Shown here: one piece after another, positions 2,015-39,404 of the stretch | Numbering within the stretch: the stretch's first letter is position 1 | How the letters are laid out: each line of letters starts with the position of its first letter | Origin: a virus | Taxonomy: Duplodnaviria; Caudoviricetes | Reading direction: 5' to 3' (one strand) | DNA length: 64,000 nt | IMG/VR virus record: IMGVR_UViG_3300021185_002017 | Program-made: the position numbers and the translations under genes | The notes under the pieces: model-generated | Seen by the model: only the letters and a program-made list of their open reading frames with translations | The model's database searches: none | What the model was told of the DNA's origin: nothing

Positions 2015-2038
2015 GCTACTATTTATTTGGCGAATATG

Positions 2039-3252: not shown

Positions 3253-3327
3253 TGGAGCGGATGCCGAGAATCGAACTCGGATCTAAACCTTGGCAAGGTC
3301 TCATAATAGCCGTTATACTACATCCGC
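3253..3327 (-). tRNA. tRNA-Gly(GCC)
   Basis: Cloverleaf, CCTTGCCAAGG anticodon arm, TTCGATT T-loop, encoded CCA. Confidence 0.95.
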
Positions 3328-3332
3328 AAACC

Positions 3333-3407
3333 TGGCGGTCTGACGGGGAATCGAACCCCGAACACCGCCGTGACAGGGCGGAATTATAACCGTTTAACTA
3401 CCAGACC
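3333..3407 (-). tRNA. tRNA-Asp(GTC)
   Basis: GGTCTGG/TCAGACC acceptor, CTGTCAC loop, TTCGATT, CCA. Confidence 0.95.
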
Positions 3408-3480
3408 GTAGTGTAGGGTTCGCCGCCCTACCCTCTACTCTACTGCATTATTTTGACAGTCCAAATGCTGTTGACTGATG

Positions 3481-3556
3481 TGGTGGAGCCGACAGGGGTC
3501 GAACCTGCGACCTTCTGGATGCAAACCAGACGCTCTCCCAACTGAGCTACGGCCCC
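3481..3556 (-). tRNA. tRNA-Ala(TGC)
   Basis: GGGGCCG...CGGCTCC ACCA with G3:U70; TTTGCAT loop. Confidence 0.95.
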
Positions 3557-3570
3557 GCGAACAAGTATTT

Positions 3571-3599
3571 ATTATACAGTCTTTGGGTATAACTGTCAA
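3571..3599 (-). promoter_or_regulatory. Sigma70-type promoter upstream of tRNA-Ala
   Basis: TTGACA-17 nt-TATAAT; overlapped by a late-type ATAAATA box. Confidence 0.8.
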
Positions 3600-4465
3600 C
3601 CTGGCAGTGAAACTATTTTTTGTAATTGTTCAAGTCCATAGAAAGTATTATCTCTGTCCTTTGTTATTCTCGAATCTGGATTACTAAACCATTTCTTTTC
3701 ATCTGCTTTTGCTAAATCTTTTGTGTAATTGCTAAAAGTACAATTAAATATTTTTTCTAAATAAACAACATGTTCAGTTGGTAACGGATGTATATCGTAT
3801 GTGTTTACTTTATACTTTGATTTAAGTAGTAACTCACGAGTTCTGTATTTGCTATACATCGCTGTTATTTCTGGTTCACTCTCTGTGTGTATTTTTACAA
3901 AGTTTTCCAATACATCACCGTATGAATTAGATGTCGGATATAACACACTAAGGAAACTTGGCAATGCTATTTTATCACTTATAGGAGACATTTGTAAATT
4001 AATACAAGTACATTTTAATGTATCTTGATATAGCAATGAGGATTCAATTGCTATTGCTGACTCTAGTTCTAGTGTTCTTTGTGTTTGGAATGATTGTATA
4101 CCCTCCATAACACTTTTTTTAAAATCAGTTGTTGCTCTTCCGTGTCCTTTCCATTTCTCAGTGATATCACCGTAGTGTTTCCATTCATTTGACTCACTCC
4201 AAAAACTATCACCAAGTACACTGAGTCTATTATGTCCAGTCCATTGTGTAATTACTAAATCATCTTCTGTGAGTTTATAAGTTTCATCAAGCAAAAACAA
4301 TTGGTTTTGTATGTACTTGTTACTTGCGCCGGAATGGCCTAAATTGTATAAAGGAATGTTTAATTCTTGTGATAGCACAGATGCCCAAGTAGGCCAATTA
4401 TTGTAGTTAGTAAAACTACAACCTATTGCAAACAGCCGGTTATACTTTTTGGAAAAGTCTATCAT
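3596..4465 (-). CDS. SGNH-hydrolase-like hypothetical protein (paralogue 1)
   Basis: GCSFT...WPTWA...GHSGASN...DIHP. Confidence 0.55.
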   Translation of the reverse strand: MIDFSKKYNRLFAIGCSFTNYNNWPTWASVLSQELNIPLYNLGHSGASNKYIQNQLFLLDETYKLTEDDLVITQWTGHNRLSVLGDSFWSESNEWKHYGDITEKWKGHGRATTDFKKSVMEGIQSFQTQRTLELESAIAIESSLLYQDTLKCTCINLQMSPISDKIALPSFLSVLYPTSNSYGDVLENFVKIHTESEPEITAMYSKYRTRELLLKSKYKVNTYDIHPLPTEHVVYLEKIFNCTFSNYTKDLAKADEKKWFSNPDSRITKDRDNTFYGLEQLQKIVSLPG

Positions 4466-4488
4466 AGTAATATTTATTCGACCGAATG

Positions 4489-4578
4489 TGGCGGAAAGGG
4501 AGAGATTCGAACTCTCGGTACAGTTACCCGTACTCTTCCTTAGCAGGGAAGTGCTTTAAGCCACTCAGCCACCTTTCC
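4489..4578 (-). tRNA. tRNA-Ser(GCT)
   Basis: Long variable arm, CTGCTAA loop, CCA. Confidence 0.95.
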
Positions 4579-4585
4579 GTGTTTT

Positions 4586-4662
4586 TGGCCTCCCGAGCAG
4601 GAGTCGAACCTGCAACCTACGGCTTAGAAGGCCGTTGCTCTATCCAATTGAGCTATCGGGAG
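4586..4662 (-). tRNA. tRNA-Arg(TCT)
   Basis: CTCCCGA/TCGGGAG acceptor, CTTCTAA loop, CCA. Confidence 0.95.
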
Positions 4663-4670
4663 TTACCCTT

Positions 4671-5243
4671 TTAATCGCTAGGATATTCAAACCATCCAGT
4701 AGCGATATATTTGTTCTCTTGTAAATCTGGTTCTGCTCTGTGCATATGAGTATATGACGCAGGCCAAATTACAAGAGTACCTTGTGTAGGTTTTATACTA
4801 CACTCTTGATGTAACCAACTTGTAGAACCTCCTAGTTCTACATCGTTTAAATATAACATCCAAACTGCAAATCTTGTTTTACCTAACACACCTTGTTCTG
4901 TGTGCCATTCTGTAAATCCTTCTCCAAGTCCTGATTTTTGATATTTAAATGTAGGAACTATAACAGCCTTGGAGGGCAATTTAGTTACAGTATACTGATT
5001 GTTGTACTTAATAAATTCTTGCCTTATTATAGACTTTATTTCTTTTGATACAGAAGCAAAAGGACTTTGTTTATCTTTTGTATCTGCAAATATTTCTACA
5101 TCGTTTCTTACAGGATTATTATCATTTACTAGCATGTCTTCAAAACCACTAGCAATACAACTTTCCATTATTTCGATTGCACTATTGCATGTGTTGCTTG
5201 ACACTGCATTTTTGCTAATCTGAATAAAAGTTTCTTGCTTCAT
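4671..5243 (-). CDS. 2OG-Fe(II) oxygenase (P4H-like)
   Basis: WHTE...MLYLNDVELGGST...GTLVIWPASYTHMHR...KYIATGW. Confidence 0.85.
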   Translation of the reverse strand: MKQETFIQISKNAVSSNTCNSAIEIMESCIASGFEDMLVNDNNPVRNDVEIFADTKDKQSPFASVSKEIKSIIRQEFIKYNNQYTVTKLPSKAVIVPTFKYQKSGLGEGFTEWHTEQGVLGKTRFAVWMLYLNDVELGGSTSWLHQECSIKPTQGTLVIWPASYTHMHRAEPDLQENKYIATGWFEYPSD

Positions 5244-5249
5244 AATTCA

Positions 5250-5370
5250 TCAGTTGAAGAGGCCCCGCACCAGTCTTCTCTGGCTTGTACTAAAAAATGT
5301 ACTGCACCTCACGACCCCTCTAATACTCAGGGACCGCCTCTTCTCGCCCTTGTTTACCCTCTGCTGATTC
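5250..5370 (-). ncRNA. Candidate structured RNA / long 5' leader
   Basis: GC-rich ORF-free segment. 8-bp closing stem GAAGAGGC/GCCTCTTC encloses three small hairpins; consensus promoter just upstream. Confidence 0.4.
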
Positions 5371-5376
5371 TATCTC

Positions 5377-5580
5377 CTAACATTCAAATTTGTGTTTATT
5401 ATACAGTTCTTGAGCAATGTTGTCAAGTCCTAAACCACAACAAATGTTCATTTGTCGACGAATCTCTTCTGCTTGTTCGTTGCCACGTTTCCATGCACGA
5501 TGATCATCACTATATTGATAAGTCCAATCGTGTGTTTTTAATAACTTTTCAAGGGTATCTAAGTCTGGATGTAATGACAT
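5377..5580 (-). CDS. Small hypothetical protein
   Basis: 67-aa ORF (HDWTYQYSDD) with upstream GGAAGG and promoter. Confidence 0.7.
   Translation of the reverse strand: MSLHPDLDTLEKLLKTHDWTYQYSDDHRAWKRGNEQAEEIRRQMNICCGLGLDNIAQELYNKHKFEC
5398..5426 (-). promoter_or_regulatory. Sigma70-type promoter (inside 3' end of upstream ORF)
   Basis: TTGACA-17 nt-TATAAT. Confidence 0.8.
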
Positions 5581-5613
5581 TTAACGCCTTCCTATGTTGT
5601 TAATTTCGAGGTT

Positions 5614-5641
5614 ATTATAGCACATACTACTACTAAGTCAA
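5614..5641 (-). promoter_or_regulatory. Sigma70-type promoter
   Basis: TTGACT-16 nt-TATAAT. Confidence 0.65.
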
Positions 5642-5646
5642 CCATT

Positions 5647-6528
5647 TTAAAGGGGATATTTTTCTATACTTCTAAAATTATATGGCCAGTCTATGCTATC
5701 TTCTAGGTACTGAGAATCAGTGGTTTCGTCAATTATTTTATCACAAAATATACAAAATTCCTTTACTCTTTTGGATAGGGGAATGCCTATGTTTCTTAGA
5801 AAAGCATAGTATTGTATACTATATGGATGGTAATCAACTTCAGGTCCCGGAAAGTCCCATACTATGTTATTTTGTTTATAATCTAAATAGTTGTATAGAC
5901 TTCTATTGCCTAATTGCTTTTCTTCTACTTCTTTGTAGAACTCTAATACATCTTCGTTGTATGTTTTAGGAGTAGTTGTATCGAATATATCCTGCTCATC
6001 CGGGGCCACAGACAGCATATAAGCGCCTGTGTACGCACTTTGTTCCATAACTGTTGCAACTGTATCAATTATTGCTAAATCACGCAATAAGAAGCCTCTA
6101 TCGCAGTTTGTGTAAGGGCTATCAAGTACTTGGGAACCAACTAAATCACCAGAACTGTTCCAACTCCATGTACTATATCTTATGTCTTTCTTGTCTGTTT
6201 TTTTCTTATCGTCATTGATAATTGCTTCTTGGAGTCTTTCACTATCTTCGTATGTATTATAATATGATAAACGATTAAAGGAACTCCACATTATTAATAC
6301 CATGTCACCCTTACCTATGTTGTACTCTTTTGTGATTTGATTCAACATAGTAAATATATAATCATTGCCACAACCACCTGTGCCAAAATTGTAATATACT
6401 AGATGAGGATGTTCTTTGGCAATAATATCAGCCCATGTAGGCCAAATCCATTTTGTAAAACTACAGCCAATAACAAACAGTCTGTTATGGGCAGTGAAGT
6501 CTAAATTTTTCGAATCCGATATTAGCAT
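5647..6528 (-). CDS. SGNH-hydrolase-like hypothetical protein (paralogue 2)
   Basis: GCSFT...WPTWA...GTGGCGN...DYHP. Confidence 0.55.
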   Translation of the reverse strand: MLISDSKNLDFTAHNRLFVIGCSFTKWIWPTWADIIAKEHPHLVYYNFGTGGCGNDYIFTMLNQITKEYNIGKGDMVLIMWSSFNRLSYYNTYEDSERLQEAIINDDKKKTDKKDIRYSTWSWNSSGDLVGSQVLDSPYTNCDRGFLLRDLAIIDTVATVMEQSAYTGAYMLSVAPDEQDIFDTTTPKTYNEDVLEFYKEVEEKQLGNRSLYNYLDYKQNNIVWDFPGPEVDYHPYSIQYYAFLRNIGIPLSKRVKEFCIFCDKIIDETTDSQYLEDSIDWPYNFRSIEKYPL

Positions 6529-6547
6529 GTTAAGATATTTAGTGTTG

Positions 6548-7057
6548 TTATACTAAAAATGACTCCCAACTTGGGTGTTTAATTGTGAATCCGAGTTGTT
6601 TTCTTTTAGCAACTAAATCCCAATAGTCTGGGCGATAAGGTGTGTGCAATGGTTTAATGTCCATTCTATTTGATTTAGAACTGTTGCATGGGTTACAAGC
6701 AGTAACAATATTAGTCCAAGAAGTTTTTCCTCCTTTGCTAATAGGAATTACATGATCTAATGTTAGTGTGCTTTGTGAAAAAGGCTTGGCGCAATATTGG
6801 CAAGTGAATAAGTCTCTGAGTTGAACGTTGTATTTTGAAAATCTAGGCTTACGGCCATGCCGGGCCATATTTTTTAGCATGATCACTGCCGGCACTTTAG
6901 TTTCCCAACTTTCACTACGAACTATCCAGTCGTCGTACCATTCAAGTACATTTACTTTGTCTAACCATAGGTATGTGATTGCTTCCTTCCATTGCACTGT
7001 TGAAGGAGGTAGCATTGAAATCGGCTGGCCATCTGCATTTAAAACAAGTGTATCCAT
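6548..7057 (-). CDS. HNH endonuclease (McrA-like, Zn-binding)
   Basis: RDLFTCQYC...TLDHVIPISKGG...WTNIVTACNPCN. Confidence 0.9.
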   Translation of the reverse strand: MDTLVLNADGQPISMLPPSTVQWKEAITYLWLDKVNVLEWYDDWIVRSESWETKVPAVIMLKNMARHGRKPRFSKYNVQLRDLFTCQYCAKPFSQSTLTLDHVIPISKGGKTSWTNIVTACNPCNSSKSNRMDIKPLHTPYRPDYWDLVAKRKQLGFTIKHPSWESFLV

Positions 7058-7080
7058 TACTAGTATTTATTCCGTGTTGC

Positions 7081-7473
7081 TTACTTTATAAGTTCTGCTA
7101 GATTTAGCAAAACTGCTGTTCCTGTGATAGCACTGCCAATCATAATTGCTTTGTCGTTCCAACAATGACCAACATATATCCATGCTATACTACTAAGTGC
7201 ATAAGCAATTTTTCCCAAGGTCATAAAATCAGCACTTTGCAAGAATACGCCTATAACTGCTAAAATGGTTGCCGCCCATTTAACATAACTATCAACTGTT
7301 CCAGTTGGTGTTGCAGGACTCAAGTCTTCAACTTGAACCTGTAATTCTTCCATCTCTTGTCTAAGACGAGATCGTTCAGCGGCAAGTTCCATAGCAAGTC
7401 GGCCAGTTTTAGTCATAGTACTGCCCTCAAACTTTTCTTTAACTTCCTCTCTTATTTCTTGCGTCTTTTCCAT
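7081..7473 (-). CDS. Membrane protein with N-terminal coiled coil
   Basis: Three hydrophobic segments in the C-terminal half. Confidence 0.65.
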   Translation of the reverse strand: MEKTQEIREEVKEKFEGSTMTKTGRLAMELAAERSRLRQEMEELQVQVEDLSPATPTGTVDSYVKWAATILAVIGVFLQSADFMTLGKIAYALSSIAWIYVGHCWNDKAIMIGSAITGTAVLLNLAELIK

Positions 7474-7495
7474 ATCACTATTTATTTGCTAAAAT

Positions 7496-7569
7496 TGGCA
7501 ACCCAGCAAGGAATCGAACCTCAATCTACGGTTTTGGAGACCGTCGTAATACCATTATACCACTGAGCT
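7496..7569 (-). tRNA. tRNA-Trp(CCA)
   Basis: CTCCAAA loop, TTCGATT, CCA. Confidence 0.93.
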
Positions 7570-7575
7570 ATTGTT

Positions 7576-7652
7576 TGGTCGGAGTAGCAGGATTCGAACC
7601 TACGACCCCCTGCTCCCAAAGCAGGTGCTCTACCAAACTGAGCTATACTCCG
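7576..7652 (-). tRNA. tRNA-Pro(TGG)
   Basis: CGGAGTA/TACTCCG acceptor, TTTGGGA loop, CCA. Confidence 0.95.
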
Positions 7653-7660
7653 TATTGCAT

Positions 7661-7751
7661 TGGCGGAGAAGATGAGATTCGAACTCATGAAAGGCTACTA
7701 ACCTTTGCTGGTTTTCAAGACCAGTGCATTCAACCACTCTGCCACTTCTCC
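7661..7751 (-). tRNA. tRNA-Ser(TGA)
   Basis: Long variable arm, CTTGAAA loop, CCA. Confidence 0.95.
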
Positions 7752-7755
7752 TGTT

Positions 7756-7832
7756 TGGTGGGCCCTGTAGGATTTGAACCTACGACCTGCCGATTATGAG
7801 TCGGATGCTCTAACCAACTGAGCTAAAGGCCC
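7756..7832 (-). tRNA. tRNA with CAT anticodon, probably Ile2 (lysidine) rather than Met
   Basis: CTCATAA loop; C4-G69 and C5-G68 pairs as in TilS substrates. Confidence 0.85.
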
Positions 7833-7878
7833 TAATTGTTGGCTCTACTATTTACCCTGGGAGAGCCTTACCAGAAGA

Positions 7879-7966
7879 TGGTACCTGAGGCCGGAATCGA
7901 ACCGGCATGGCCATTACAGCCGAGGGATTTTAAGTCCCTTGTGTCTACCTATTCCACCACTCAGGC
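7879..7966 (-). tRNA. tRNA-Leu(TAA)
   Basis: Long variable arm, CTTAAAA loop, discriminator A, CCA. Confidence 0.95.
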
Positions 7967-7972
7967 ATTTGT

Positions 7973-8152
7973 TCACAAGTCCAGTTCTGTTTGATACGGA
8001 CTATAATTTGATTCATGCTTATCTACATACCCTGTTAAGGCTGCAACAACTGCACTTTCAATTAATATTCTTGCTGTTTCATTGTCCATGTCTAGGACTA
8101 GTCTAGCAGTGCCATCCGGCTGTTCGTCGAGCTCAATCACTTCAATTGTCAT
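7973..8152 (-). CDS. 59-aa hypothetical protein (not in ORF track)
   Basis: MTIEVIELDEQPDGTARLVLDMD...; AGGA upstream and a consensus promoter. Confidence 0.7.
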   Translation of the reverse strand: MTIEVIELDEQPDGTARLVLDMDNETARILIESAVVAALTGYVDKHESNYSPYQTELDL

Positions 8153-8181
8153 TGATGTTATCCTACTTAGTTAGTTTGGCT

Positions 8182-8210
8182 ATTATACAGTTGTATATAC
8201 CATATGTCAA
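8182..8210 (-). promoter_or_regulatory. Sigma70-type promoter for small ORF and tRNA cluster
   Basis: TTGACA-17 nt-TATAAT. Confidence 0.8.
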
Positions 8211-8674
8211 GCATTCTTTTTCAAATAATCGAAATAATATTGAGCTAATTTGTCTTGCTTTGCATAGGCTTCTTTCTCCCATGGAGCGTCCCAATATTCA
8301 CTTTGATTCTTCTTAGCAACAAACTTTTTACCTTTGAACCTATTGTCACTTAGGTCAAGTTCGTCCTTAACAAATTGTTTTACATGAATCATTTCGTGTG
8401 CAAGAGTTTTAATCATGTCACGAAAACGCTTCTTACGCCAAACAAAAATACTTACTTCCCATGGCTTAGATTTTCTATACTGCTTTGCAAAACACCATCC
8501 TTCGCAGTCACCATCTGTTTTGCTTACAGTACGACCTAACATTACATCAAAACACATCGGTATGTGTGCAATTCCTAACTTAGTAGCCATTATAAGAACG
8601 GCTGACTCAATTTTTAACGCAACATTTTTATCGTAAGGTTGGCCCCCGGATGGTCCGGTAATGATGATTTCCAT
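8207..8674 (-). CDS. Putative zinc metallopeptidase (HExxH)
   Basis: TLAHEMIHVKQF...PWEKEAY. Confidence 0.75.
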   Translation of the reverse strand: MEIIITGPSGGQPYDKNVALKIESAVLIMATKLGIAHIPMCFDVMLGRTVSKTDGDCEGWCFAKQYRKSKPWEVSIFVWRKKRFRDMIKTLAHEMIHVKQFVKDELDLSDNRFKGKKFVAKKNQSEYWDAPWEKEAYAKQDKLAQYYFDYLKKNA

Positions 8675-8679
8675 TGTGT

Positions 8680-9219
8680 TTACCTCTCAGTTATGTTGAA
8701 GTGTTTGTATGTTTGCTGTACACAAACTGCTTGCCAAAAGGCATCAGCATCAGCACTATGTAAGTCCTGTTGTATTGCTTTACGAGGATCGACAGGCATC
8801 ATGTTAAAGATTGTTCTACAATCCATGATCTGCCAAAATGCCCAACCTCTGTGATGTTCAAATTGCTTGAACAAGTTCTCAAGTATAACCATATCAAACT
8901 GAGGACCTTGACACCAAATTTTGTCAACACCAACAAGGAATTTGTTTAACTCAGCCATAAACTGTGCTAAAGGTATTCTACCTTCTTCGCTAAATGCTTC
9001 GTCTTGGATATGTGCTGGTTGCTTTGCCCACCACTCTAATGTGCTATCTAGCACACTGCGATCAGCAGTTGTTTGTGCATCAATCTCAGGCTTCCACAGC
9101 GTCTTAGCATGTGGCTCTGTAGACATAAATGGGTCAAATTTAACAGCACCCACTGATAATACTACACAGTCTGGTTCTGTTCCAAGTGTTTCGATATCTA
9201 TCATTGCGTGTGTTTTCAT
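8680..9219 (-). CDS. DEDDh 3'-5' exonuclease (Rv2179c-like)
   Basis: MIDIETLG...VLSVGAVKF...FDMVILE...HSADADA. Confidence 0.85.
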   Translation of the reverse strand: MKTHAMIDIETLGTEPDCVVLSVGAVKFDPFMSTEPHAKTLWKPEIDAQTTADRSVLDSTLEWWAKQPAHIQDEAFSEEGRIPLAQFMAELNKFLVGVDKIWCQGPQFDMVILENLFKQFEHHRGWAFWQIMDCRTIFNMMPVDPRKAIQQDLHSADADAFWQAVCVQQTYKHFNITER

Positions 9220-9225
9220 GCTGTT

Positions 9226-9254
9226 ATTATAACAGTCTCACACTTAAAAGTCAA
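9226..9254 (-). promoter_or_regulatory. Sigma70-type promoter, probably leaderless transcript
   Basis: TTGACT-17-TATAAT ending 6 nt before the ATG. Confidence 0.75.
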
Positions 9255-9267
9255 CAAAAATTTTGTC

Positions 9268-9906
9268 TTATTTTTCAGTAACTTGCAAAGCCGTTAATCC
9301 AGCGGCATGCATTATATTAGCACTTGCTGGGTATTTGTCATCCAGTAACTTTGATGTATATGAATTTTCTTCTAGCATATCCCATAGTATAACAGTATCA
9401 TCCTCAAAATCTTGTTTAGTAAGCCATGGCAAATTAGGTATGAATACTAAGTCTGGGTGAGTAAATATTCCGTTTTGTTCTTGTTCAAGCCAACCTATAA
9501 ATCCTAAAGGCCGGTGGTGTGTGCATACTCGAAATGCTTGGCCACATATAAGTACTCTTAAAGTATTAGGTTCATTGTTAAAGTCTAATCCGGTATGTAG
9601 TGCTTCAGGAAATTCTCTAAACACTTCTATAATATTTTCGCATTTTCTAAATTTGAGATCAAAGCCATTATTTTTGCTCTGTATATTATCTACTAACCAT
9701 TTAGATGTATCTGGTATTAGATCTTCAAGATCCCATTTATTATGACTTGCTAGTACAACATTTTTAAAATTATAATTACTTAATTTTTTTACAATGCGGC
9801 TATAGAATTCAGGTGTCCTAGTTTCGAAGTTTACTTGTTCTTGTCCCCATTCACTTTCTAACTCCCAGCAATCTATTAAAATTACGAGGTCAAATGAAAT
9901 GCTCAT
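9268..9906 (-). CDS. Hypothetical protein, possibly isochorismatase/cysteine-hydrolase-like
   Basis: LVILIDCW and VLICGQAFRVC resemble the Asp and Cys motifs of the family. Confidence 0.4.
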   Translation of the reverse strand: MSISFDLVILIDCWELESEWGQEQVNFETRTPEFYSRIVKKLSNYNFKNVVLASHNKWDLEDLIPDTSKWLVDNIQSKNNGFDLKFRKCENIIEVFREFPEALHTGLDFNNEPNTLRVLICGQAFRVCTHHRPLGFIGWLEQEQNGIFTHPDLVFIPNLPWLTKQDFEDDTVILWDMLEENSYTSKLLDDKYPASANIMHAAGLTALQVTEK

Positions 9907-10766
9907 TACAATGTTAGTACAGTATCGTCAGGGAGTTGATCATCATTTACGGAGGCTAGTTGTCCTGCTCCTTTAACACCTTCGGCCCATTTCATTTTTT
10001 CAAATGGGTCTTGCTCACCTGCTTTTACTTTATTCCACCATGTTAGGTCACCTAAGTTTGCCTTTTCCATAAACCAAGCAATCTTATGTGCAGTTGCTAC
10101 ACGGGCATGTTGCATTTGTTCATGTCCAAAGTCTTTAGGGTCAGAAGGATTACCTTCCATGTACTTTCTATTTTTAAAAGTTTCATCATCATTGTTACCT
10201 GTGATGTCTGCTCTGTCGTGAATAAACTCTACATCGATTCTTTCAAAGATATCTAACATGTATGCAATGTGACTAAGCCATGCATCGTTCTGTGCATTTT
10301 GACTTAGGTGCCCAGTAAGTATGTACCAGTCTCTAGGCACGATAGGAAAAATTGCATAAGGATGACCATTGTGATTATCTCTTGGTGCTAGTAACTTAAA
10401 TTGTCCGTCATAAGTTTTGATTACATCGTCCCATCCTTGTGTTTCCATTAACCCATCATCATTCCAAAAGAATAACCATTCACCTAATGCTGCACCTGCT
10501 AATGTGTTTACATAAGTATGCAAGTTTTCGTAACCCAATGGTTGAAAAATATTTGCTCTTGCTTCTACACCTAGTTCTTGTAAGTAAGGTGCAATTTCAT
10601 CTTTGATATAGTCAATGGTTGCAGTATCATCTTCATCTAGTCCTAACATAATTTCAATATCGCTAGGATTAGTTGCTTTAGAAATAAGTGACTCTAAACT
10701 CTTTTTAAGAAGTTGAGGCCTACCTCTTGTTGGTAAAAGTATTGTTATTTTTTTCTCTGGAGTCAT
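9906..10766 (-). CDS. GT-A (family 2-like) glycosyltransferase
   Basis: ILLPTRGRP, LGLDEDD, FWNDD. Confidence 0.75.
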   Translation of the reverse strand: MTPEKKITILLPTRGRPQLLKKSLESLISKATNPSDIEIMLGLDEDDTATIDYIKDEIAPYLQELGVEARANIFQPLGYENLHTYVNTLAGAALGEWLFFWNDDGLMETQGWDDVIKTYDGQFKLLAPRDNHNGHPYAIFPIVPRDWYILTGHLSQNAQNDAWLSHIAYMLDIFERIDVEFIHDRADITGNNDDETFKNRKYMEGNPSDPKDFGHEQMQHARVATAHKIAWFMEKANLGDLTWWNKVKAGEQDPFEKMKWAEGVKGAGQLASVNDDQLPDDTVLTL

Positions 10767-10774
10767 TTTATTTC

Positions 10775-11716
10775 CTATGTGTTAGTAACAGGCTTATCGT
10801 TTTTTCCAGTAAATAACTTTCTAATGTTACCCCTGAATGTGTAGTGTCCAACATGATTAAGTGCTGTGCGTGGGTCTAACCAAACTTCGCCACCCATGTC
10901 CTGCCAGCGTCTGCAGAAGGTATAATCTTCTGATAAGTATCGTCTGCTTTCTGGGTCAATGATACAATCAAATAATGCATACATAAATGGCTCAAACTTT
11001 TGATCAACATTAATGTCATTTACATATTTTGTTTCAGGGTGTGTGTCAAACATTTTTTGTATTACTTCTTTGTTAATACACATAAAGCCTGTGCCAGCAT
11101 CTTTTAGTTTAACTAAGTTGTCTACGATTTGTACTTGGCCTGTTCTGTTACCTTCCTGATCTTTAACAAAGTCAAAGTTTACAACATAGTTTGAACTATG
11201 CCCTTCAATTGTTTCTGCTGTTTCTGTTTCATCGTGTCTTGCGGCTTCTATGATACTATTCCAATTCAATGCTTTTTTAGGATAAGCACCTACAACAATT
11301 GGTTTGTCATATGCAACCATACGCAAAATATCTTCTGGTTGGAATTCAATATCAGCATCAACAAAAAACAAATGTGTTGCTTCTTTGTTTTCCATGAAGA
11401 AACTTGTTAGTGTGTTACGCCCACGAGTAATTAAACTTTCGTTAGCAAGAGTACTAATTGTATACTTAATGTCGTACTTGTTACACAAGATTGCAAAACG
11501 CATCATACTTCTAAAGTAAGGCTCTCCTATTTGTCCACCGTAACAAGGTGTGGCAATAAAGATATGCTTTTGTCTTAATAGACCTAATGGTATTTCAATT
11601 TTAGCATCAAGAAGTTGATGCATTACATCGTTTTCTTTATTAGTATTATTCGATGCGGCTGCTGTTTTCTTTGCCGGGGTGCCTTTATTTTTAGACTTAC
11701 TTTTTCTGTTTGACAT
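10775..11716 (-). CDS. GT-A fold glycosyltransferase-like protein
   Basis: IATPCYGG, SLITRGRN, FVDADIEF, YLSEDYTFCRRW. Confidence 0.7.
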   Translation of the reverse strand: MSNRKSKSKNKGTPAKKTAAASNNTNKENDVMHQLLDAKIEIPLGLLRQKHIFIATPCYGGQIGEPYFRSMMRFAILCNKYDIKYTISTLANESLITRGRNTLTSFFMENKEATHLFFVDADIEFQPEDILRMVAYDKPIVVGAYPKKALNWNSIIEAARHDETETAETIEGHSSNYVVNFDFVKDQEGNRTGQVQIVDNLVKLKDAGTGFMCINKEVIQKMFDTHPETKYVNDINVDQKFEPFMYALFDCIIDPESRRYLSEDYTFCRRWQDMGGEVWLDPRTALNHVGHYTFRGNIRKLFTGKNDKPVTNT

Positions 11717-11737
11717 TTGTTGTCCTGTAGTGTGTAG

Positions 11738-11813
11738 TGGAGCTGCTGGTCAGAATCGAACTGACTACCTGCTGATTACAAATCAGCTGCTCTACCGAGT
11801 GAGCTACAGCAGC
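11738..11813 (-). tRNA. tRNA-Thr(TGT)
   Basis: GCTGCTG/CAGCAGC acceptor, TTTGTAA loop, CCA. Confidence 0.95.
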
Positions 11814-17086: not shown

Positions 17087-17094
17087 ACTACTAT

Positions 17095-17256
17095 TTATAT
17101 GATTATACTCGCCATTATTAGCAGTAACGATATAGAGCCTAAGAATGCAAAGCCTAATGCTATTGCTGTTATAAGAATTTGAAAGGGTGATGCAGTGTTA
17201 TGTTCTGACTTACCAACGCCTACTAGTAGTCTAAATGTGTTTCTAAAATAGGACAC
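17095..17256 (-). CDS. 53-aa membrane protein (GTG start)
   Basis: Manual translation MSYFRNTFRLLVGVGKSEHNTASPFQILITAIALGFAFLGSISLLLIMASIII. Confidence 0.55.
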   Translation of the reverse strand: MSYFRNTFRLLVGVGKSEHNTASPFQILITAIALGFAFLGSISLLLIMASIII

Positions 17257-29051: not shown

Positions 29052-29273
29052 CTATAATTTTTGTTTTGCTGAGTATATAATGTAGCACTCACACCCATTT
29101 TTGTTTACTTTATTGAAAATATTTTTTTGATGCATTACATCACAGAGATGTGCATCACGCTCAGACAGTTCATTTAATTTTAAACCGCCAAACAGTTCAG
29201 CCTGATCATATAGTTGTGTTTCAAACTTGTTAATTAGACTTAAGATGTTATCTTTACCTTTTACTGCTTTCAT
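29052..29273 (-). CDS. Small hypothetical protein
   Basis: 73-aa ORF coupled to the upstream stop. Confidence 0.65.
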   Translation of the reverse strand: MKAVKGKDNILSLINKFETQLYDQAELFGGLKLNELSERDAHLCDVMHQKNIFNKVNKNGCECYIIYSAKQKL

Positions 29274-29947
29274 ATCTTTTGCTGATGCCTTGACTTTTTA
29301 GGCTTACCGTATCCGCCTGTTTGTAAAGTAGCCTCGGCATGCATTGCTGCCATGTGCTTCTTATATTTTTTAGTGCCTTTTTTATGTGGGCTTTTGCCTT
29401 CAGGCATAGTATCTTTGATATCTTTAACCATATCAGGATGTCTAAATTTGCGTAAAATCATTGATTCTATTTGTCGTGTTCTTTCTCTAGTAATACCAAA
29501 CATTTTGCCAACATCTTCTAAACTATGTTGGTCCTCACCGTCAAGTCCATATCGTAAGGCTATAAGTTTTCTTTCTGCAGGTTTTAGTGTATCTAACATT
29601 TTAGAAAGTTTTTCATTTCTCTGCCTGTCCCTTATGTCTTTATCTAAGTCTTGATCGTATGTTAAGTCGTCATCGTCGAATGAATCAAAGTCTTGTGCTT
29701 TGTTTACAGGATCTCTATCATCTAAATGTGGCATAGGTTGTTGCCTGTAAGTTTTGCCATCTGGATTATACAGAGATGCTTGTTGATTTGCATTTGCTTC
29801 GCTTGTTTTTTTCTTCTTTTTCTTTTTAGGAGTTGTATTAGCAAACACACTTGCATTAGGTCTTTTTTGCATAGCACCCATAGGAGCTGCAACGGTAGCA
29901 ATACCACCTGCACTAGTTGTTTCTTGAATAATATCGTTGATCTTCAT
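29270..29947 (-). CDS. Putative head-packaged protein carrying a sigma70 region-4 HTH
   Basis: MKINDIIQE leader; LDTLKPAERKLIALRYGLDGEDQHSLEDVGKMFGITRERTRQIESMILRKFRHP. Confidence 0.8.
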   Translation of the reverse strand: MKINDIIQETTSAGGIATVAAPMGAMQKRPNASVFANTTPKKKKKKKTSEANANQQASLYNPDGKTYRQQPMPHLDDRDPVNKAQDFDSFDDDDLTYDQDLDKDIRDRQRNEKLSKMLDTLKPAERKLIALRYGLDGEDQHSLEDVGKMFGITRERTRQIESMILRKFRHPDMVKDIKDTMPEGKSPHKKGTKKYKKHMAAMHAEATLQTGGYGKPKKSRHQQKI

Positions 29948-29968
29948 AGTAGTATTTACCGTTTTTAA

Positions 29969-30505
29969 TTATGTTAGTCTAACGTTTACAATGTCCCAGT
30001 TAATAATACGCCACATATTGTTTAAGTATTTGCCTTTGTCATGTTGGTAATCTAATGCCCAAGCATGTTCCCACCAGTCAACTAACATTGCAATGTCATT
30101 TTTAACTTGATGATTAACTATTGTTTTGATATCACCGGATGTACTCATGTATACCCAGCCGCTACCTTGTATCTTCATTGCTACTTCTTCGAACTGTTCT
30201 TTGAATGTAGCAAAGTCTCCATACTTACTGTCTATAAGTTCTTTACTTGCACCAGTAGGATTATTACTACCACCTGGTGCTTTCAATTGTGGAAAAAATA
30301 TATTGTGTAAGAATGCACCTGCTTCCATAAACTGTGCATCGCCTTTGCCCTCGTTAAATTTTGTAACGTATGCTTTAGCAAGTTTACCATAGTGAAAGTT
30401 AATTGTGTCCTCACTCATAACAGGATCGAGATCGCTTTTACCGTAAGGTAATCTTTCTTGTACAAGTACTTTCTTTTCTTCTGTTAAAAAATCATTTAAG
30501 TTCAC
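29969..30505 (-). CDS. sod: Fe/Mn superoxide dismutase
   Basis: LPY...L.P...T..FHY.K...Y, LHNIFF, GSGW, DWWEHAW..DY; all four metal ligands present. Confidence 0.9.
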   Translation of the reverse strand: MNLNDFLTEEKKVLVQERLPYGKSDLDPVMSEDTINFHYGKLAKAYVTKFNEGKGDAQFMEAGAFLHNIFFPQLKAPGGSNNPTGASKELIDSKYGDFATFKEQFEEVAMKIQGSGWVYMSTSGDIKTIVNHQVKNDIAMLVDWWEHAWALDYQHDKGKYLNNMWRIINWDIVNVRLT

Positions 30506-31398
30506 TTCTTTTTTCCGCCTTTCATGTTAGCACACCAGTGATACATTTTGCCTTTTTCACCACTATACTTTTTAGCCTTTGCTCTTAAACTTGTTACAGA
30601 ACCTTTACAACTAGCACCTGCTTTTTTGACTCTACCAGGCTTGCTTTTGCCTTTCTTCTTACCGTCTGCAAAGTTTTCGTCGATTGCATTTAATAATGCT
30701 TGAAGGTCTTGCATTGCTTCTATTGTTTCGTATATGCTACCGCCAAACTTAACACTTGAAGTTTTCTTCTTTTTCTTCTTTTTCTTTTTCTTGTACGGTG
30801 CTAGTGTACCTATTCCTAAAAATCCTCTACTAACAGGAGCATCCATAGTAGGAGCATCGCCTGGATCAGCACCACCTACATCACCACCTGCATCACCACC
30901 GGAATCGCCTCCGCCTGTTGCTGCACCACCATCACCACCTGCACTTGCACCACCACTGGCTCCACCTGAGCCTCCTGCTCCGGCTCCACCGCCGGCTCCA
31001 CCACCACCGCCTCCGGCGCCGTCTTCGTATGTTTCTTCGTCTCTGGCTTTACTACTGTAATGCTTTATTAATTCTTCTATAGTAGCATCGACTCTAATTG
31101 CTTTAACTTTATCTAAGTCTAATTCTAATGCTACATCATATCTATGATGTCCGTTGACAATAAAATTATTTTTGTCTATAATTATAGGTCTTATACTACC
31201 ATCATCAAAGCCACGCTTTGCTTTATCTTTTAATCCTTTTACTCGTTGCTTTTGCACAGGCTTTAGATTAGATACTGATATGTTTCCTAACTTATATGAG
31301 AAAGGGCCGTCGTCAAGATCAGGTTGCCTAATCTGAGGCATAATCTTTCGCGGGAAGTTTTTTTCTTGCTCCGGCCTTTGTAACTCAGAAAGTTTCAT
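30502..31398 (-). CDS. ParB/Srx-like domain fused to Gly-rich, poly-Lys and basic C-terminal modules
   Basis: LKPVQ...PIIIDKNNFIVNGHHRY; GGAGGG tract; KKKKKKKKKK. Confidence 0.7.
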   Translation of the reverse strand: MKLSELQRPEQEKNFPRKIMPQIRQPDLDDGPFSYKLGNISVSNLKPVQKQRVKGLKDKAKRGFDDGSIRPIIIDKNNFIVNGHHRYDVALELDLDKVKAIRVDATIEELIKHYSSKARDEETYEDGAGGGGGGAGGGAGAGGSGGASGGASAGGDGGAATGGGDSGGDAGGDVGGADPGDAPTMDAPVSRGFLGIGTLAPYKKKKKKKKKKTSSVKFGGSIYETIEAMQDLQALLNAIDENFADGKKKGKSKPGRVKKAGASCKGSVTSLRAKAKKYSGEKGKMYHWCANMKGGKKK

Positions 31399-38373: not shown

Positions 38374-38667
38374 CTAGCCGGAAAAGGAAGTTACCCCAGC
38401 CCATGCACAGCCAGTAACACCGAATGCGTTAGTAGCATCATCAGCAATTGCTGGGCCACCTTCGTATGCAATGTATATTGCTGTAGTTGCATCTACTGAG
38501 AAACCTTCAATACCAGTAATAGTGTAGTTTTGTACAGTTATTGCTTGTATTAAAGCATCCATTTTCGCTTGGGTCATGTTTGTTGAAACTGTTGCAGTTG
38601 CAATATGTATTACTCTACCGAAACCGTTTAGGTCTTCAGTAAAACCATTTACTCTTGTTTGTGCCAT
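38374..38667 (-). CDS. Small MAQ-start virion protein 1
   Basis: Own late box (38713-38720), GGAG SD and terminator. Confidence 0.75.
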   Translation of the reverse strand: MAQTRVNGFTEDLNGFGRVIHIATATVSTNMTQAKMDALIQAITVQNYTITGIEGFSVDATTAIYIAYEGGPAIADDATNAFGVTGCAWAGVTSFSG

Positions 38668-38731
38668 TTTGTTACTCCGATTTGAACGGGCTTACCTGTT
38701 GCCCTATGCAAATATTTATCTTATTATAGTC

Positions 38732-38762
38732 AAAAAAAATCCCCACATAGTGAGGATTTTTT
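38732..38762 (-). terminator. Intrinsic terminator
   Basis: ATCCTCAC TAT GTGGGGAT plus T run. Confidence 0.8.
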
Positions 38763-38779
38763 AAACTAAATGTTAAAAC

Positions 38780-39028
38780 TTAGCCAAAAGTTACAACTAA
38801 TGTTGCGCCTGTTAATGATGGTGTTGCGCCAGCGCCTTGTAAAGCGATGTGACAACCGTCATTTGCTACGTCATCTTCAATTGCTACAACGATAAAGCCT
38901 TCTGCTTGTGCTTCTGCTGTCACGTCTGCTACTGAGTTTGTTGATACATCAGTTACTGACATAATGTGAGTAGTTCCTACTAGGCCGTTAGCTGCTCTAA
39001 CTGCTGCGTTTGGGTTTGCTTGTGCCAT
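38780..39028 (-). CDS. Small MAQ-start virion protein 2
   Basis: Own late box (39078-39085), AGGAG SD and terminator. Confidence 0.75.
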   Translation of the reverse strand: MAQANPNAAVRAANGLVGTTHIMSVTDVSTNSVADVTAEAQAEGFIVVAIEDDVANDGCHIALQGAGATPSLTGATLVVTFG

Positions 39029-39096
39029 GGTTATTCTCCTAAATATAATGTAGAGCTAATTCTTTACTCTATGTACTTATTTATCAATCTAGTCAT

Positions 39097-39122
39097 AAAA
39101 AAAGGCAGTTAAACTGCCTTTT
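39097..39122 (-). terminator. Intrinsic terminator
   Basis: AAGGCAGT TTA ACTGCCTT plus T run. Confidence 0.8.
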
Positions 39123-39143
39123 AATATCTAAAGTTAGTTAAAC

Positions 39144-39404
39144 TTAGAATGATACATCAGCAATAACGTGTGCTGCAATGTCACCGTTTGCTAAGTTATC
39201 TGCACCTTCAACTATCATTTTAACTGTATCGCCTGATACTGCGCCAACTTTAAGTACTGAAAGGTTTAAGTTTTGAACAGAGCTAACTAATGCTGTTAAT
39301 TGAGTTGCTGAAATATTTCCTGATTGTTGTTGAAAACTTTTAAGAAATACATCTTTACCAATAAACTCGCCTGCTGCTGCTGATCTTCTATCTGCTTGTG
39401 CCAT
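39144..39404 (-). CDS. Small MAQ-start virion protein 3
   Basis: Own late box (39435-39442), AGGAG SD and terminator. Confidence 0.75.
   Translation of the reverse strand: MAQADRRSAAAGEFIGKDVFLKSFQQQSGNISATQLTALVSSVQNLNLSVLKVGAVSGDTVKMIVEGADNLANGDIAAHVIADVSF

Follow-up and report, generated by a model that had tools for sequence, protein, structure and literature searches.

The locus described here raises the question of what a phage could gain from the C-terminal, docking end of a sigma factor when the remainder of the factor is missing. In a 64,000-nucleotide (nt) stretch of the virus record IMGVR_UViG_3300021185_002017 (Duplodnaviria; Caudoviricetes), referred to as the window hereafter, a gene on the minus strand encodes a protein of 225 amino acids (aa), in which an initial annotation had read a sigma70 region 4 without region 2, flanked by a leader, poly-Lys, an acidic stretch and a basic module, and for which it had suggested an injected -35-binding decoy or repressor, a beta-flap competitor or a sponge for host anti-sigma factors. 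We examined what this domain is, in which frame it is presented and what it might do to the host.

A primary-sigma region 4 within a phage module

The Pfam profile Sigma70_r4 (PF04545) matched aa 118-170 with an E of 3e-13 and 49.5 bits versus a cut-off of 24.1, and the protein also matched PHROG 351 ('RNA polymerase sigma factor') with an E of 3e-15. When phmmer was run against the PDB, aa 111-181 aligned with region 4 of S. aureus sigmaA (4g6d, E 9e-17), and cyanobacterial SigA chains aligned with aa 79-178, which includes a remnant of the region 3.2 linker. Sigma70_r4 is the one recognisable Pfam domain, the remaining 150 residues being leader, spacer, extension and tail, and no match to Sigma70_r1, r2 or r3 was obtained at E <= 0.1 anywhere in the 225-aa protein. 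Because region 2 is absent, membership in the Sigma70_r4 domain family does not make the protein a sigma factor. Both the region 4 and the lack of region 2 claimed by the initial annotation were thus confirmed.

The helix-turn-helix (HTH) fold that this identity implies was indeed predicted by AlphaFold2, with a predicted local distance difference test score (pLDDT) of 80-96 for aa 100-178 and low confidence in the other parts of the protein. The best Foldseek matches of the model in the PDB were all region 4 of sigmaA or sigma70, with a root mean square deviation (rmsd) of 1.2-1.5 Å over ~79 residues. Using VIA-align, module residues 48-127 were superimposed on E. coli sigma70 527-605 (Z 9.0, rmsd 4.4 Å, with 78 residues aligned to 528-605), and the comparison with 4g6d gave Z 8.9 and an rmsd of 1.8 Å with 62 residues aligned. 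In the recognition helix, the motif TRERTRQ at aa 153-159 places R154, E155, R156, R158 and Q159 at the positions of sigma70 R584, E585, R586, R588 and Q589, so that the -35 contact residues of primary sigmas (R584, E585 and R588, plus R586 and Q589) are all present. The first three have been tied genetically and structurally to positions -31 and -33 of the -35 box (PMC2613000). These results indicate that aa 111-181 are a genuine primary-sigma region 4. The protein shares with the primary (group 1) sigmas RpoD and SigA the sequence of this region (about 50% identity), its fold and the five residues named above, as well as a GLDG-type loop and an acidic linker resembling region 3.2. Unlike them, it is devoid of regions 1, 2 and 3.0/3.1, and with them of -10 recognition and melting, and it carries in addition a hairpin extension found only in phages.

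This extension proved to be part of the conserved unit. In a search space of 5.8 billion proteins (1.84 billion for the cluster-representative search), the ~130-aa stretch of aa 51-181 recurred in other architectures. An identical protein is present in public metagenomes (P0001). A 364-aa protein with 91% identity (P0002) has the same leader and tail and an additional unrelated domain ahead of the module, a 260-aa TARA protein with 83% identity (P0003/L030) has a different leader and a different N-terminal domain, and 324-aa proteins with 54-59% identity (P0006/P0008/L031) show yet another context, with a Cys-containing C-terminal domain. A scan of IMG/VR and metagenomes added the carriers L023-L027, L030 and L031, and the module is now seen in more than 25 architectures from marine viromes, of 139 to 1510 aa. 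When only the non-sigma part was used as query (aa 50-117), 31 cluster representatives were matched, nearly all with region 4 behind it, and region 4 was confirmed by Pfam in every module carrier tested. By contrast with the viromes, the module was found in none of 185,579 prokaryote species, with one genome scanned for each, nor was it found in cultured phages, the tblastn matches of the protein being confined to region 4 in rpoD genes of bacterial type or in phage sigma genes; a megablast of 14 kb for cultured relatives gave no match. Judging from these searches, region 4 belongs here to a larger, ~130-aa phage-only module consisting of an N-terminal extension followed by region 4, which we interpret as a phage invention built upon a captured sigma C-terminus. 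When the window was translated in six frames and scanned by hmmsearch with the profile of the family, a single copy was returned, that of this gene.

In its family form, the extension reads YNPDGKTYR..MPxLD..DPV and is followed by an Asp-rich linker resembling sigma region 3.2. The segment MPxLD..DPV..A can be likened to the bacterial SLExPIG that opens region 3.2, as phmmer aligned the two in this way and the acidic linker comes next. When the family alignment was supplied, the pLDDT of the extension rose up to 65-86, and a short helix and a beta hairpin at YNPDGKTY were predicted by AlphaFold; in structure comparison, no solved structure matched the predicted hairpin part.

Conservation was analysed in an alignment of 33 modules, whose most conserved columns lie in the extension and not in region 4. 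The Thr-Tyr of TYR and the Pro of MPxLD are invariant (33/33 each), the Asp of DPV is found in 32/33 and the Tyr of (L)Y-N-P in 30/33. In region 4, the residues kept throughout the family are R586 (28/33), R588 (30/33), Q589 (29/33), E591 (29/33), L598 (33/33, as L, M or F) and R599 (27/33). What the whole family appears to have in common is therefore the fold, the backbone of the recognition helix, the C-terminal helix and, above all, the extension. Compared with the TARA relative L030 (83% aa identity, synonymous divergence dS 0.44), the ratio of nonsynonymous to synonymous rates (dN/dS) was 0.22 for the module (see Table 1 for its two parts). Given this ratio, the module is not drifting neutrally but is under purifying selection. 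Neither of the two outcomes that would have refuted the initial annotation, a lack of any predicted HTH fold and an unconserved or neutrally drifting sigma segment, was observed. The functional unit seems to exceed region 4 and to include the conserved phage-specific extension and the region-3.2-like linker, the window protein being one member of a wide module family.

Some carriers deserve separate mention. In the 264-aa proteins L013-L015 from IMG/VR, distant relatives of the module (25% identity) have a degenerate extension (PYTGKSPVYKGKRLPTDD), a tail ...KKSIDC.NPKGFSQKAHCAGRKK behind the module and, ahead of it, an N-terminal domain that by eye we take to resemble pterin-4a-carbinolamine dehydratase. 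In several others (L023 4973-6646, L026 5770-6723, P0122 and P0135), the sigma module shares one chain with an HExxH metallopeptidase-like domain (HELVHCKQ / FHELTHVRQ), placed N- or C-terminal to it, and with recurrent small basic Cys-containing modules (...WPSAYASGALVQCRKKGAKNWG, ...RLDPKCWKG.K..GTKMKGG..VNNCV).

Table 1. Features of the gene and its upstream box, in window coordinates (arrow, junction)
Feature	Position	Strand	Remarks
225-aa open reading frame (ORF), ATG start	29270..29947	-	read as cargo precursor: leader, spacer, sigma module and basic tail
Leader MKINDIIQE, aa 1-9, ends I-x-E	29921..29947	-	T4-type capsid-targeting-like
Conserved spacer TTSAGGIATVAAPMG.M.KRPN..., K7 run, ends T-S-E, aa 10-50	29798..29920	-	isoelectric point (pI) 10.8
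Phage-specific extension, aa 51-110	29618..29797	-	ANANQQASLY, YNPDGKTYR hairpin, MPHLD..DPV, Asp-rich Glu-free linker; dN/dS 0.30
Sigma70 region 4 (4.1, 4.2 and C-terminal helix), aa 111-181	29405..29617	-	Pfam, phmmer, AlphaFold2, Foldseek, VIA-align; dN/dS 0.17
HTH recognition helix TRERTRQIESMILRKFRH, aa 153-170 = E. coli sigma70 583-600	29438..29491	-	phmmer and VIA-align mapping
Basic tail GKSPHKKGTKKYKKHMAAMHAEATLQTGGYGKPKKSRHQQKI, aa 184-225, M-P-E↓G before tail	29273..29398	-	pI 10.5
Late-promoter-like box GTAAATA, 5 nt upstream of ATG	29953..29959	-	T4-late-like by sequence only

Leader, junctions and exchange of cargo

The flanks named by the initial annotation were all recovered, namely the leader, the run of seven Lys, the Asp-rich stretch (aa 51-110, where 15 Asp occur but not a single Glu) and the basic EGKSPHKKGTKKYKKH... 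tail. In T4, the first 10 residues of IPIII are enough for head loading and are removed by the protease gp21 after L/I-X-E; the first gp21 bond mapped was Glu-Ala, and Asp at P1 blocks cleavage (PMC9026906). The window leader agrees with the T4-type definition of about 10 residues ending in L/I-X-E (here I-Q-E; definition from PMC9026906). In the gene block at 26.9-45.2 kb, leader-like starts such as MLIREVISE, MNLNDFLTE, MRIDEIIAE and MKLSELQ... were found on 8 of 18 ORFs versus 3 of 49 elsewhere (Fisher p 7e-4, for a pattern chosen post hoc). Moreover, the minimal members of the family consist of a leader of 8-10 residues joined directly to the module (MRIIEILE↓ANPNQQ..., MRANEFTAE↓ASAKQQ..., MKIAEIIE↓ANINQQ..., MKVKDIISE↓ANYW...).

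The same signature marks the borders of the module. The sequences upstream of the module are unrelated in the 33 architectures, and Glu occupies P1 at the N-boundary in 29 of them. Of these 29, 24 have I, L or V at P3 (background 0.21, binomial p 1.5e-12) and 21 have Ala at P1'. This junction, (I/L/V)-x-E↓A, equals the L/I-X-E rule and the Glu-Ala bond of gp21. Borders of the same pattern occur on the C-terminal side (MPE↓GKSPH, VRE↓AEY, LTE↓NFADG, IPE↓AANP, ITE↓AEQ). The extension, acidic and exposed, is itself poor in Glu: Asp and Glu stand at 15:0 in the window protein and at 298:104 across the family, compared with 92:139 in region 4 family-wide and about 1:1 in other window proteins, and only three aliphatic-x-Glu triplets occur in about 1950 residues of extension. 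The products predicted from these sites are the leader (aa 1-9), two basic peptides (aa 10-50 and aa 184-225) and the module proper (aa 51-183) of 15.7 kDa and pI 5.1.

The two ends of the precursor are constant and its middle is not. The spacer (aa 10-50) is 73-98% identical to that of relatives bearing other cargos, and the basic tail recurs as the C-terminal module behind many different cargos. In the nearest relative (G001), an orthologous gene in the same place has a leader and spacer 79% identical and a tail 98% identical to those of the window, with an unrelated 130-aa middle; the tail of this pair is under extreme constraint (dS 0.64, dN/dS 0.027). Other relatives fill the space between these ends with a zinc-ribbon-like piece, with helical pieces or with acidic domains, and Pfam gave nothing informative for the other cargos of this leader and tail family (P0004, P0009, P0011, P0012, P0029). 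Since leader and basic tail are common to relatives with unrelated middles, the cargo is swappable. The spacer motif might be a second head-anchoring element. Other marine phages (L009, L018, L022) also have this motif, TTSAGGIATVAAPMG.M.KRP followed by poly-Lys, on short proteins of ~90 aa. A likeness of AGGIATVAAPMG to the C-terminus of PA5oct gp249 (L038 5881-6507; AAISGVVTPLGEIKRR, AAISGVVTPLGEIKRRHKKPKK) was discarded, being faint and not significant (BLASTP E 0.23).

The gene lies in a tight co-directional block, preceded by genes for a 1958-aa protein, a ParB-like protein and an Fe/Mn superoxide dismutase and followed by ORFs of 73, 149 and 435 aa. The 435-aa protein has a homologue in the jumbo phage PA5oct, namely gp247, which electrospray ionization tandem mass spectrometry (ESI-MS/MS) has shown to be a virion protein (PMC7318152). 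The order of the block is shared with PA5oct, in which ribonucleotide reductase subunits, an exonuclease and gp245-247 are followed, at the place of this gene, by a run of small virion proteins detected by mass spectrometry (MS). PA5oct encodes a Peptidase_S77, that is, a gp21-type protease (E 7e-25), and it needs its host's RNA polymerase (PMC7318152). On the coding strand between 26.6 and 47.6 kb, no sigma70-type promoter was found, the single match there (31154) being on the opposite strand, and a T4-late-like box directly precedes the gene. Taken together, the leader, the minimal forms, the junctions, the avoidance of Glu, the swapping of cargo, the synteny with virion genes and the late timing make it probable that the protein is packaged into the head. 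The 'injected' of the initial annotation likewise gains support from the T4-type leader, the (I/L/V)-x-E↓A junctions and the PA5oct synteny, and this support is of a comparative kind.

The closest parallels are T4 IPI-III and Alt, with which the window protein shares a leader of ~10 residues ending in aliphatic-x-Glu, cleavage-type junctions before Ala, a constant address on diverse, swappable cargo and an apparently late expression among virion genes. It differs from them in a cargo that is a sigma fragment and not an enzyme or a nuclease inhibitor, in a packaging that is predicted, and in a precursor with an added constant 41-aa basic spacer and a 42-aa basic tail, the polyproteins of its relatives reaching 1510 aa. 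Polyvalent proteins, described from phages and conjugative elements, combine two or more unrelated domains in one polypeptide within a virion or transfer context (PMC5512222). As in these proteins, the relatives' module carriers join many unrelated domains (HExxH peptidase-like domains, basic modules), occur in virion contexts and are predicted to be injected, and the ParB-like neighbour recalls the context of P1 DdrB. Unlike in polyvalent proteins, the junctions follow the T4 protease motif, and the window protein has a single recognisable domain, in spite of relatives of such length. The word 'sigma' is absent from the paper describing that class (PMC5512222).

Possible action on the host RNA polymerase

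From the sigma 3.2-4 module and its shuffled, Glu-delimited cargo frame we infer packaging, cleavage, ejection and a target. We tentatively propose, as the best supported of the readings, one that is quite possible and yet short of probable, that the gene encodes a head-packaged, protease-released sigma mimic acting on the host RNA polymerase or on -35 DNA, in an uncultured giant marine phage distantly related to T4. The leader would steer the precursor to the prohead, like a T4 capsid-targeting sequence (CTS); a gp21-type prohead protease would cut after Glu9, Glu50 and Glu183 and set free the basic spacer peptide, the basic tail peptide and the ~15.7-kDa acidic module. The module would then enter the host with the DNA, and would also be present in the producing cell late in infection. 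It would occupy the sites of host sigma70 regions 3.2 and 4, that is, the beta-flap tip and the RNA-exit channel, and in this member also TTGACA -35 boxes. As far as its sequence can be read, the module has region 4, which in sigma lies on the beta flap, and the acidic 3.2-4 linker, which lies in the RNA-exit channel, without the portion responsible for clamp-helix binding and DNA opening; having no region 2, it should be unable to open promoters.

Region 4 is known to touch the flap tip helix (PMC7892883) and to read the -35 box (PMC2613000), and T4 Alt sets a precedent for a packaged and injected protein that likewise targets the host RNA polymerase (PMC9026906, PMC5512222). The outcome would be a weakening of -35-dependent host promoters. 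The early promoters of the phage do have consensus -35 boxes, as the initial annotation had noticed: TTGAC-N16-19-TATAAT occurs 12 times in the window versus 0.38 times expected, with 11 of the 12 on the coding strand. Most of these promoters (at 3571-61223) have in addition TG immediately or one base upstream of the -10 box (CTGTATAAT, TGCTATAAT, TGTTATAAT), and are thus extended -10-like. With a consensus -35 and a TG-flanked -10 they might be more robust than those of the host; in T4, early promoters with extra elements withstand the loss of -35 reading, as under AsiA (PMC2613000). Late in the producing cell, the same protein could help to silence the early promoters.

The expected interference with region 4, flap or -35 box, favouring promoters independent of it, would resemble that of T4 AsiA, P23-45 gp39, Xp10 P7 and G1 gp67. 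These are foreign folds that bind region 4 or the flap, unlike the window protein, in which a copy of region 4 itself would compete; no sequence or fold relation to any of the four was detected in any search made. Neither phage-encoded region-4 decoys nor packaged sigma fragments were found in literature searches.

Several points weigh against this proposal. R584, the -31 contact, is kept in only 12 of 33 modules and E585 in 19 of 33, and therefore TTGACA reading cannot be the shared function of the family; strict TTGACA reading seems to be a property of the window member and its close kin. For the protein of the window, which keeps all the contacts, the -35-binding idea of the initial annotation is a candidate role, as are its beta-flap competitor and its anti-sigma sponge. 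At the cleavage sites of the window protein itself, P3 is Thr (Glu50) and Met (Glu183), where I, L or V is commonest. The orthologous gene of G001 does without the module, which must then be dispensable for this type of phage, i.e. accessory. Searches for gp21 (PF03420) and gp23 (PF07068) gave no match in ten relative fragments, each 9-31% complete and with controls that were likewise silent, and this negative is uninformative. Finally, an injected competitor for -35 boxes or flap would endanger the consensus early promoters of the phage too.

Of the alternatives, the one that survives best is a cytoplasmic late regulator that is never packaged, which would compete for the flap, cover the consensus -35 boxes of the phage to stop its early genes, or occupy the flap as gp33 does beside a gp55-type late sigma; we consider it unlikely. 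Such a role fits the late-type box directly upstream of the gene, the complete set of -35 contacts, the consensus -35 boxes of the early promoters and the clamping of the flap tip helix by T4 gp33, in which gp33 acts like sigma region 4 (PMC7892883). It does not explain why the leader is of T4 type, why the junctions read (I/L/V)-x-E↓A, why the linker is free of Glu, why the module is embedded in long mosaic proteins or why the block is syntenic with virion proteins. In addition, the orthologous gene of the nearest relative bears a different cargo, and no -35-like box stands upstream of the late boxes of the window. The likeness to gp33 itself goes no further than small size, phage origin and an expected seat on the flap tip helix, where sigma region 4 would otherwise lie. 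T4 gp33 has five helices, bears no structural relation to region 4, does not bind DNA on its own and ends in a C-terminal clamp motif (PMC7892883), unlike the window protein, which has a true region 4 with DNA-reading residues and ends in a basic tail. As the fold differs and the C-terminal clamp motif is missing, the window protein is not a gp33.

A split sigma formed with gp55 at hybrid promoters was considered and rejected, no TTGAC-like element being present at -35 spacing in the 45 nt upstream of 22 late-type boxes beside gene starts. In Bacillus subtilis, the two-subunit sigma SigO-RsoA takes region 4 and region 2 from separate polypeptides. Unlike in that cellular system, no region-2 partner is linked to the window gene.

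A second alternative, which we regard as distinctly unlikely, is a decoy or sponge for proteins that bind region 4, be it a host Rsd-like anti-sigma factor, region-4-touching activators, a defence sensor or an AsiA-like factor of the phage's own. Region 4 is a known hub of regulators, among the PDB neighbours of the model are complexes formed with G1 ORF67, with WhiB proteins and with lambda cI, and the KALRKLRHP surface is strongly kept, with R596 in 27/33 modules besides the L598 and R599 given above. What speaks against it is that the extension, and not region 4, is the most conserved part, and a pure region-4 decoy would not require an extension.

Slightly less credible still is a structural internal head protein, whose HTH and basic peptides would merely bind and condense the DNA in the head and take no part in transcription. 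T4 internal proteins are basic and DNA-associated (PMC3012670); the spacer (pI 10.8) and the tail (pI 10.5) are basic too, the latter being also the most constrained part. Against this, the released sigma module is acidic, and it has kept the region-3.2-like linker and the C-terminal helix, features linked to RNA polymerase rather than to DNA; furthermore, the basic parts stay while the cargo swaps, so that they, and not the cargo, would do the condensing. Least of all do we believe that the N-terminal QQ(A/L)S(L)Y is a sliding-clamp motif by which the module tethers the clamp to the beta flap like T4 gp33: the motif resembles the beta-clamp consensus QL(S/D)LF (PMC11139829), would form the new N-terminus after cleavage and could serve a clamp-activated transcription of the kind known in T4 and Mu (PMC7892883, PMC12867686), but its final residue is Tyr in 30/33 modules (canonical F or L), its position 4 is Arg in 9/33, and the Q-A-S-L-Y of the window, with Ala at position 2, fails the published Q-aliphatic-x-[L/M]-[F/L] (PMC11139829).

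Returning to the packaged sigma mimic, its interest lies in the strategy. Phages are known to act on the host RNA polymerase through foreign small proteins (AsiA, gp33, gp39, P7), through head-carried enzymes (Alt) and through complete sigma factors; a docking and -35-reading end of sigma carried in the head would, if the proposal is true, be a different strategy, mimicry by a fragment before any phage gene is expressed. Small marine bacteria are assumed to hold few polymerase molecules. With so few, even tens of module copies could matter, and a T4 particle packs 20-200 copies of CTS fusion proteins (PMC9026906). In its boldest version, which we hold to be doubtful, a whole family of marine giant phages packs and injects a sigma fragment, made up of a region-3.2-like linker with region 4 and preceded by a hairpin of the phages' own invention, which mimics sigma stoichiometrically and plugs the flap and RNA-exit-channel site at time zero. 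If this were true, there would be no earlier case of a virus whose ejected effector is a part of sigma itself, and the invariant extension, YNPDGKTYR/MPxLD, would represent a novel element for binding RNA polymerase. The family also offers a natural set of shuffled, protease-delimited cargo modules for the study of head cargo loading and exchange in T4-like phages, a compact conserved extension of ~60 residues as a candidate for partner binding, and, in the 15.7-kDa module, a testable reagent to probe the occupancy of flap and exit channel.

Occurrence and neighbouring genes

DNA nearly identical to that of the window was found in at least 14 seawater or marine metagenome runs, and contigs from RNA libraries of three studies cover the whole gene with 100% identity, which indicates presence only, as contigs do not prove transcription, ends or strand. 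On account of both, the phage is common. In three runs belonging to two studies (X15 and X16 from one sample, X17 from the other study), the RNA-library contigs stop at 29199-29204, no more than 6 nt apart, about 70 nt beyond the stop of the gene and inside the next ORF, a weak hint of a transcript 3' end.

An (A/G)TAAATA box 5-6 nt before the ATG, with no Shine-Dalgarno sequence, is shared by six genes (29953-29959, 17092-17098, 7479-7485, 7064-7070, 4471-4477 and 2020-2026, minus strand), whose late mRNAs may be leaderless or nearly so. At other late genes, the box stands 25-50 nt upstream and is followed by AGGAG. On the minus strand at 38374-39404 lie three small paralogous ORFs (97, 82 and 86 aa, all beginning with MAQ...), each equipped with a separate ATAAATA box, with an AGGAG site and with a T-rich hairpin-like sequence behind it; by position, they match the small MS-detected virion proteins gp250/gp251 of PA5oct.

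When the G001 region (L001 1498-2768) was compared with window positions 29270-31398, it was found to be without the superoxide dismutase gene (29969-30505), and its ParB-like protein of 182 aa is without an insert of ~115 aa present in the 298-aa version of the window. This insert comprises a long run rich in Gly, Ala, Ser and Asp, the sequence GFLGIGTLAPY, a run of 11 Lys and a segment ending in ...AIDE↓NFADG, so that inserts in the block also end at x-x-Glu. Eleven tRNA genes (Gly, Asp, Ala, Ser, Arg, Trp, Pro, Ser, Met, Leu and Thr) lie in three clusters on the minus strand at 3253-11813, among small genes with late boxes, and several ORFs listed there on the plus strand are mere antisense of these tRNA genes.

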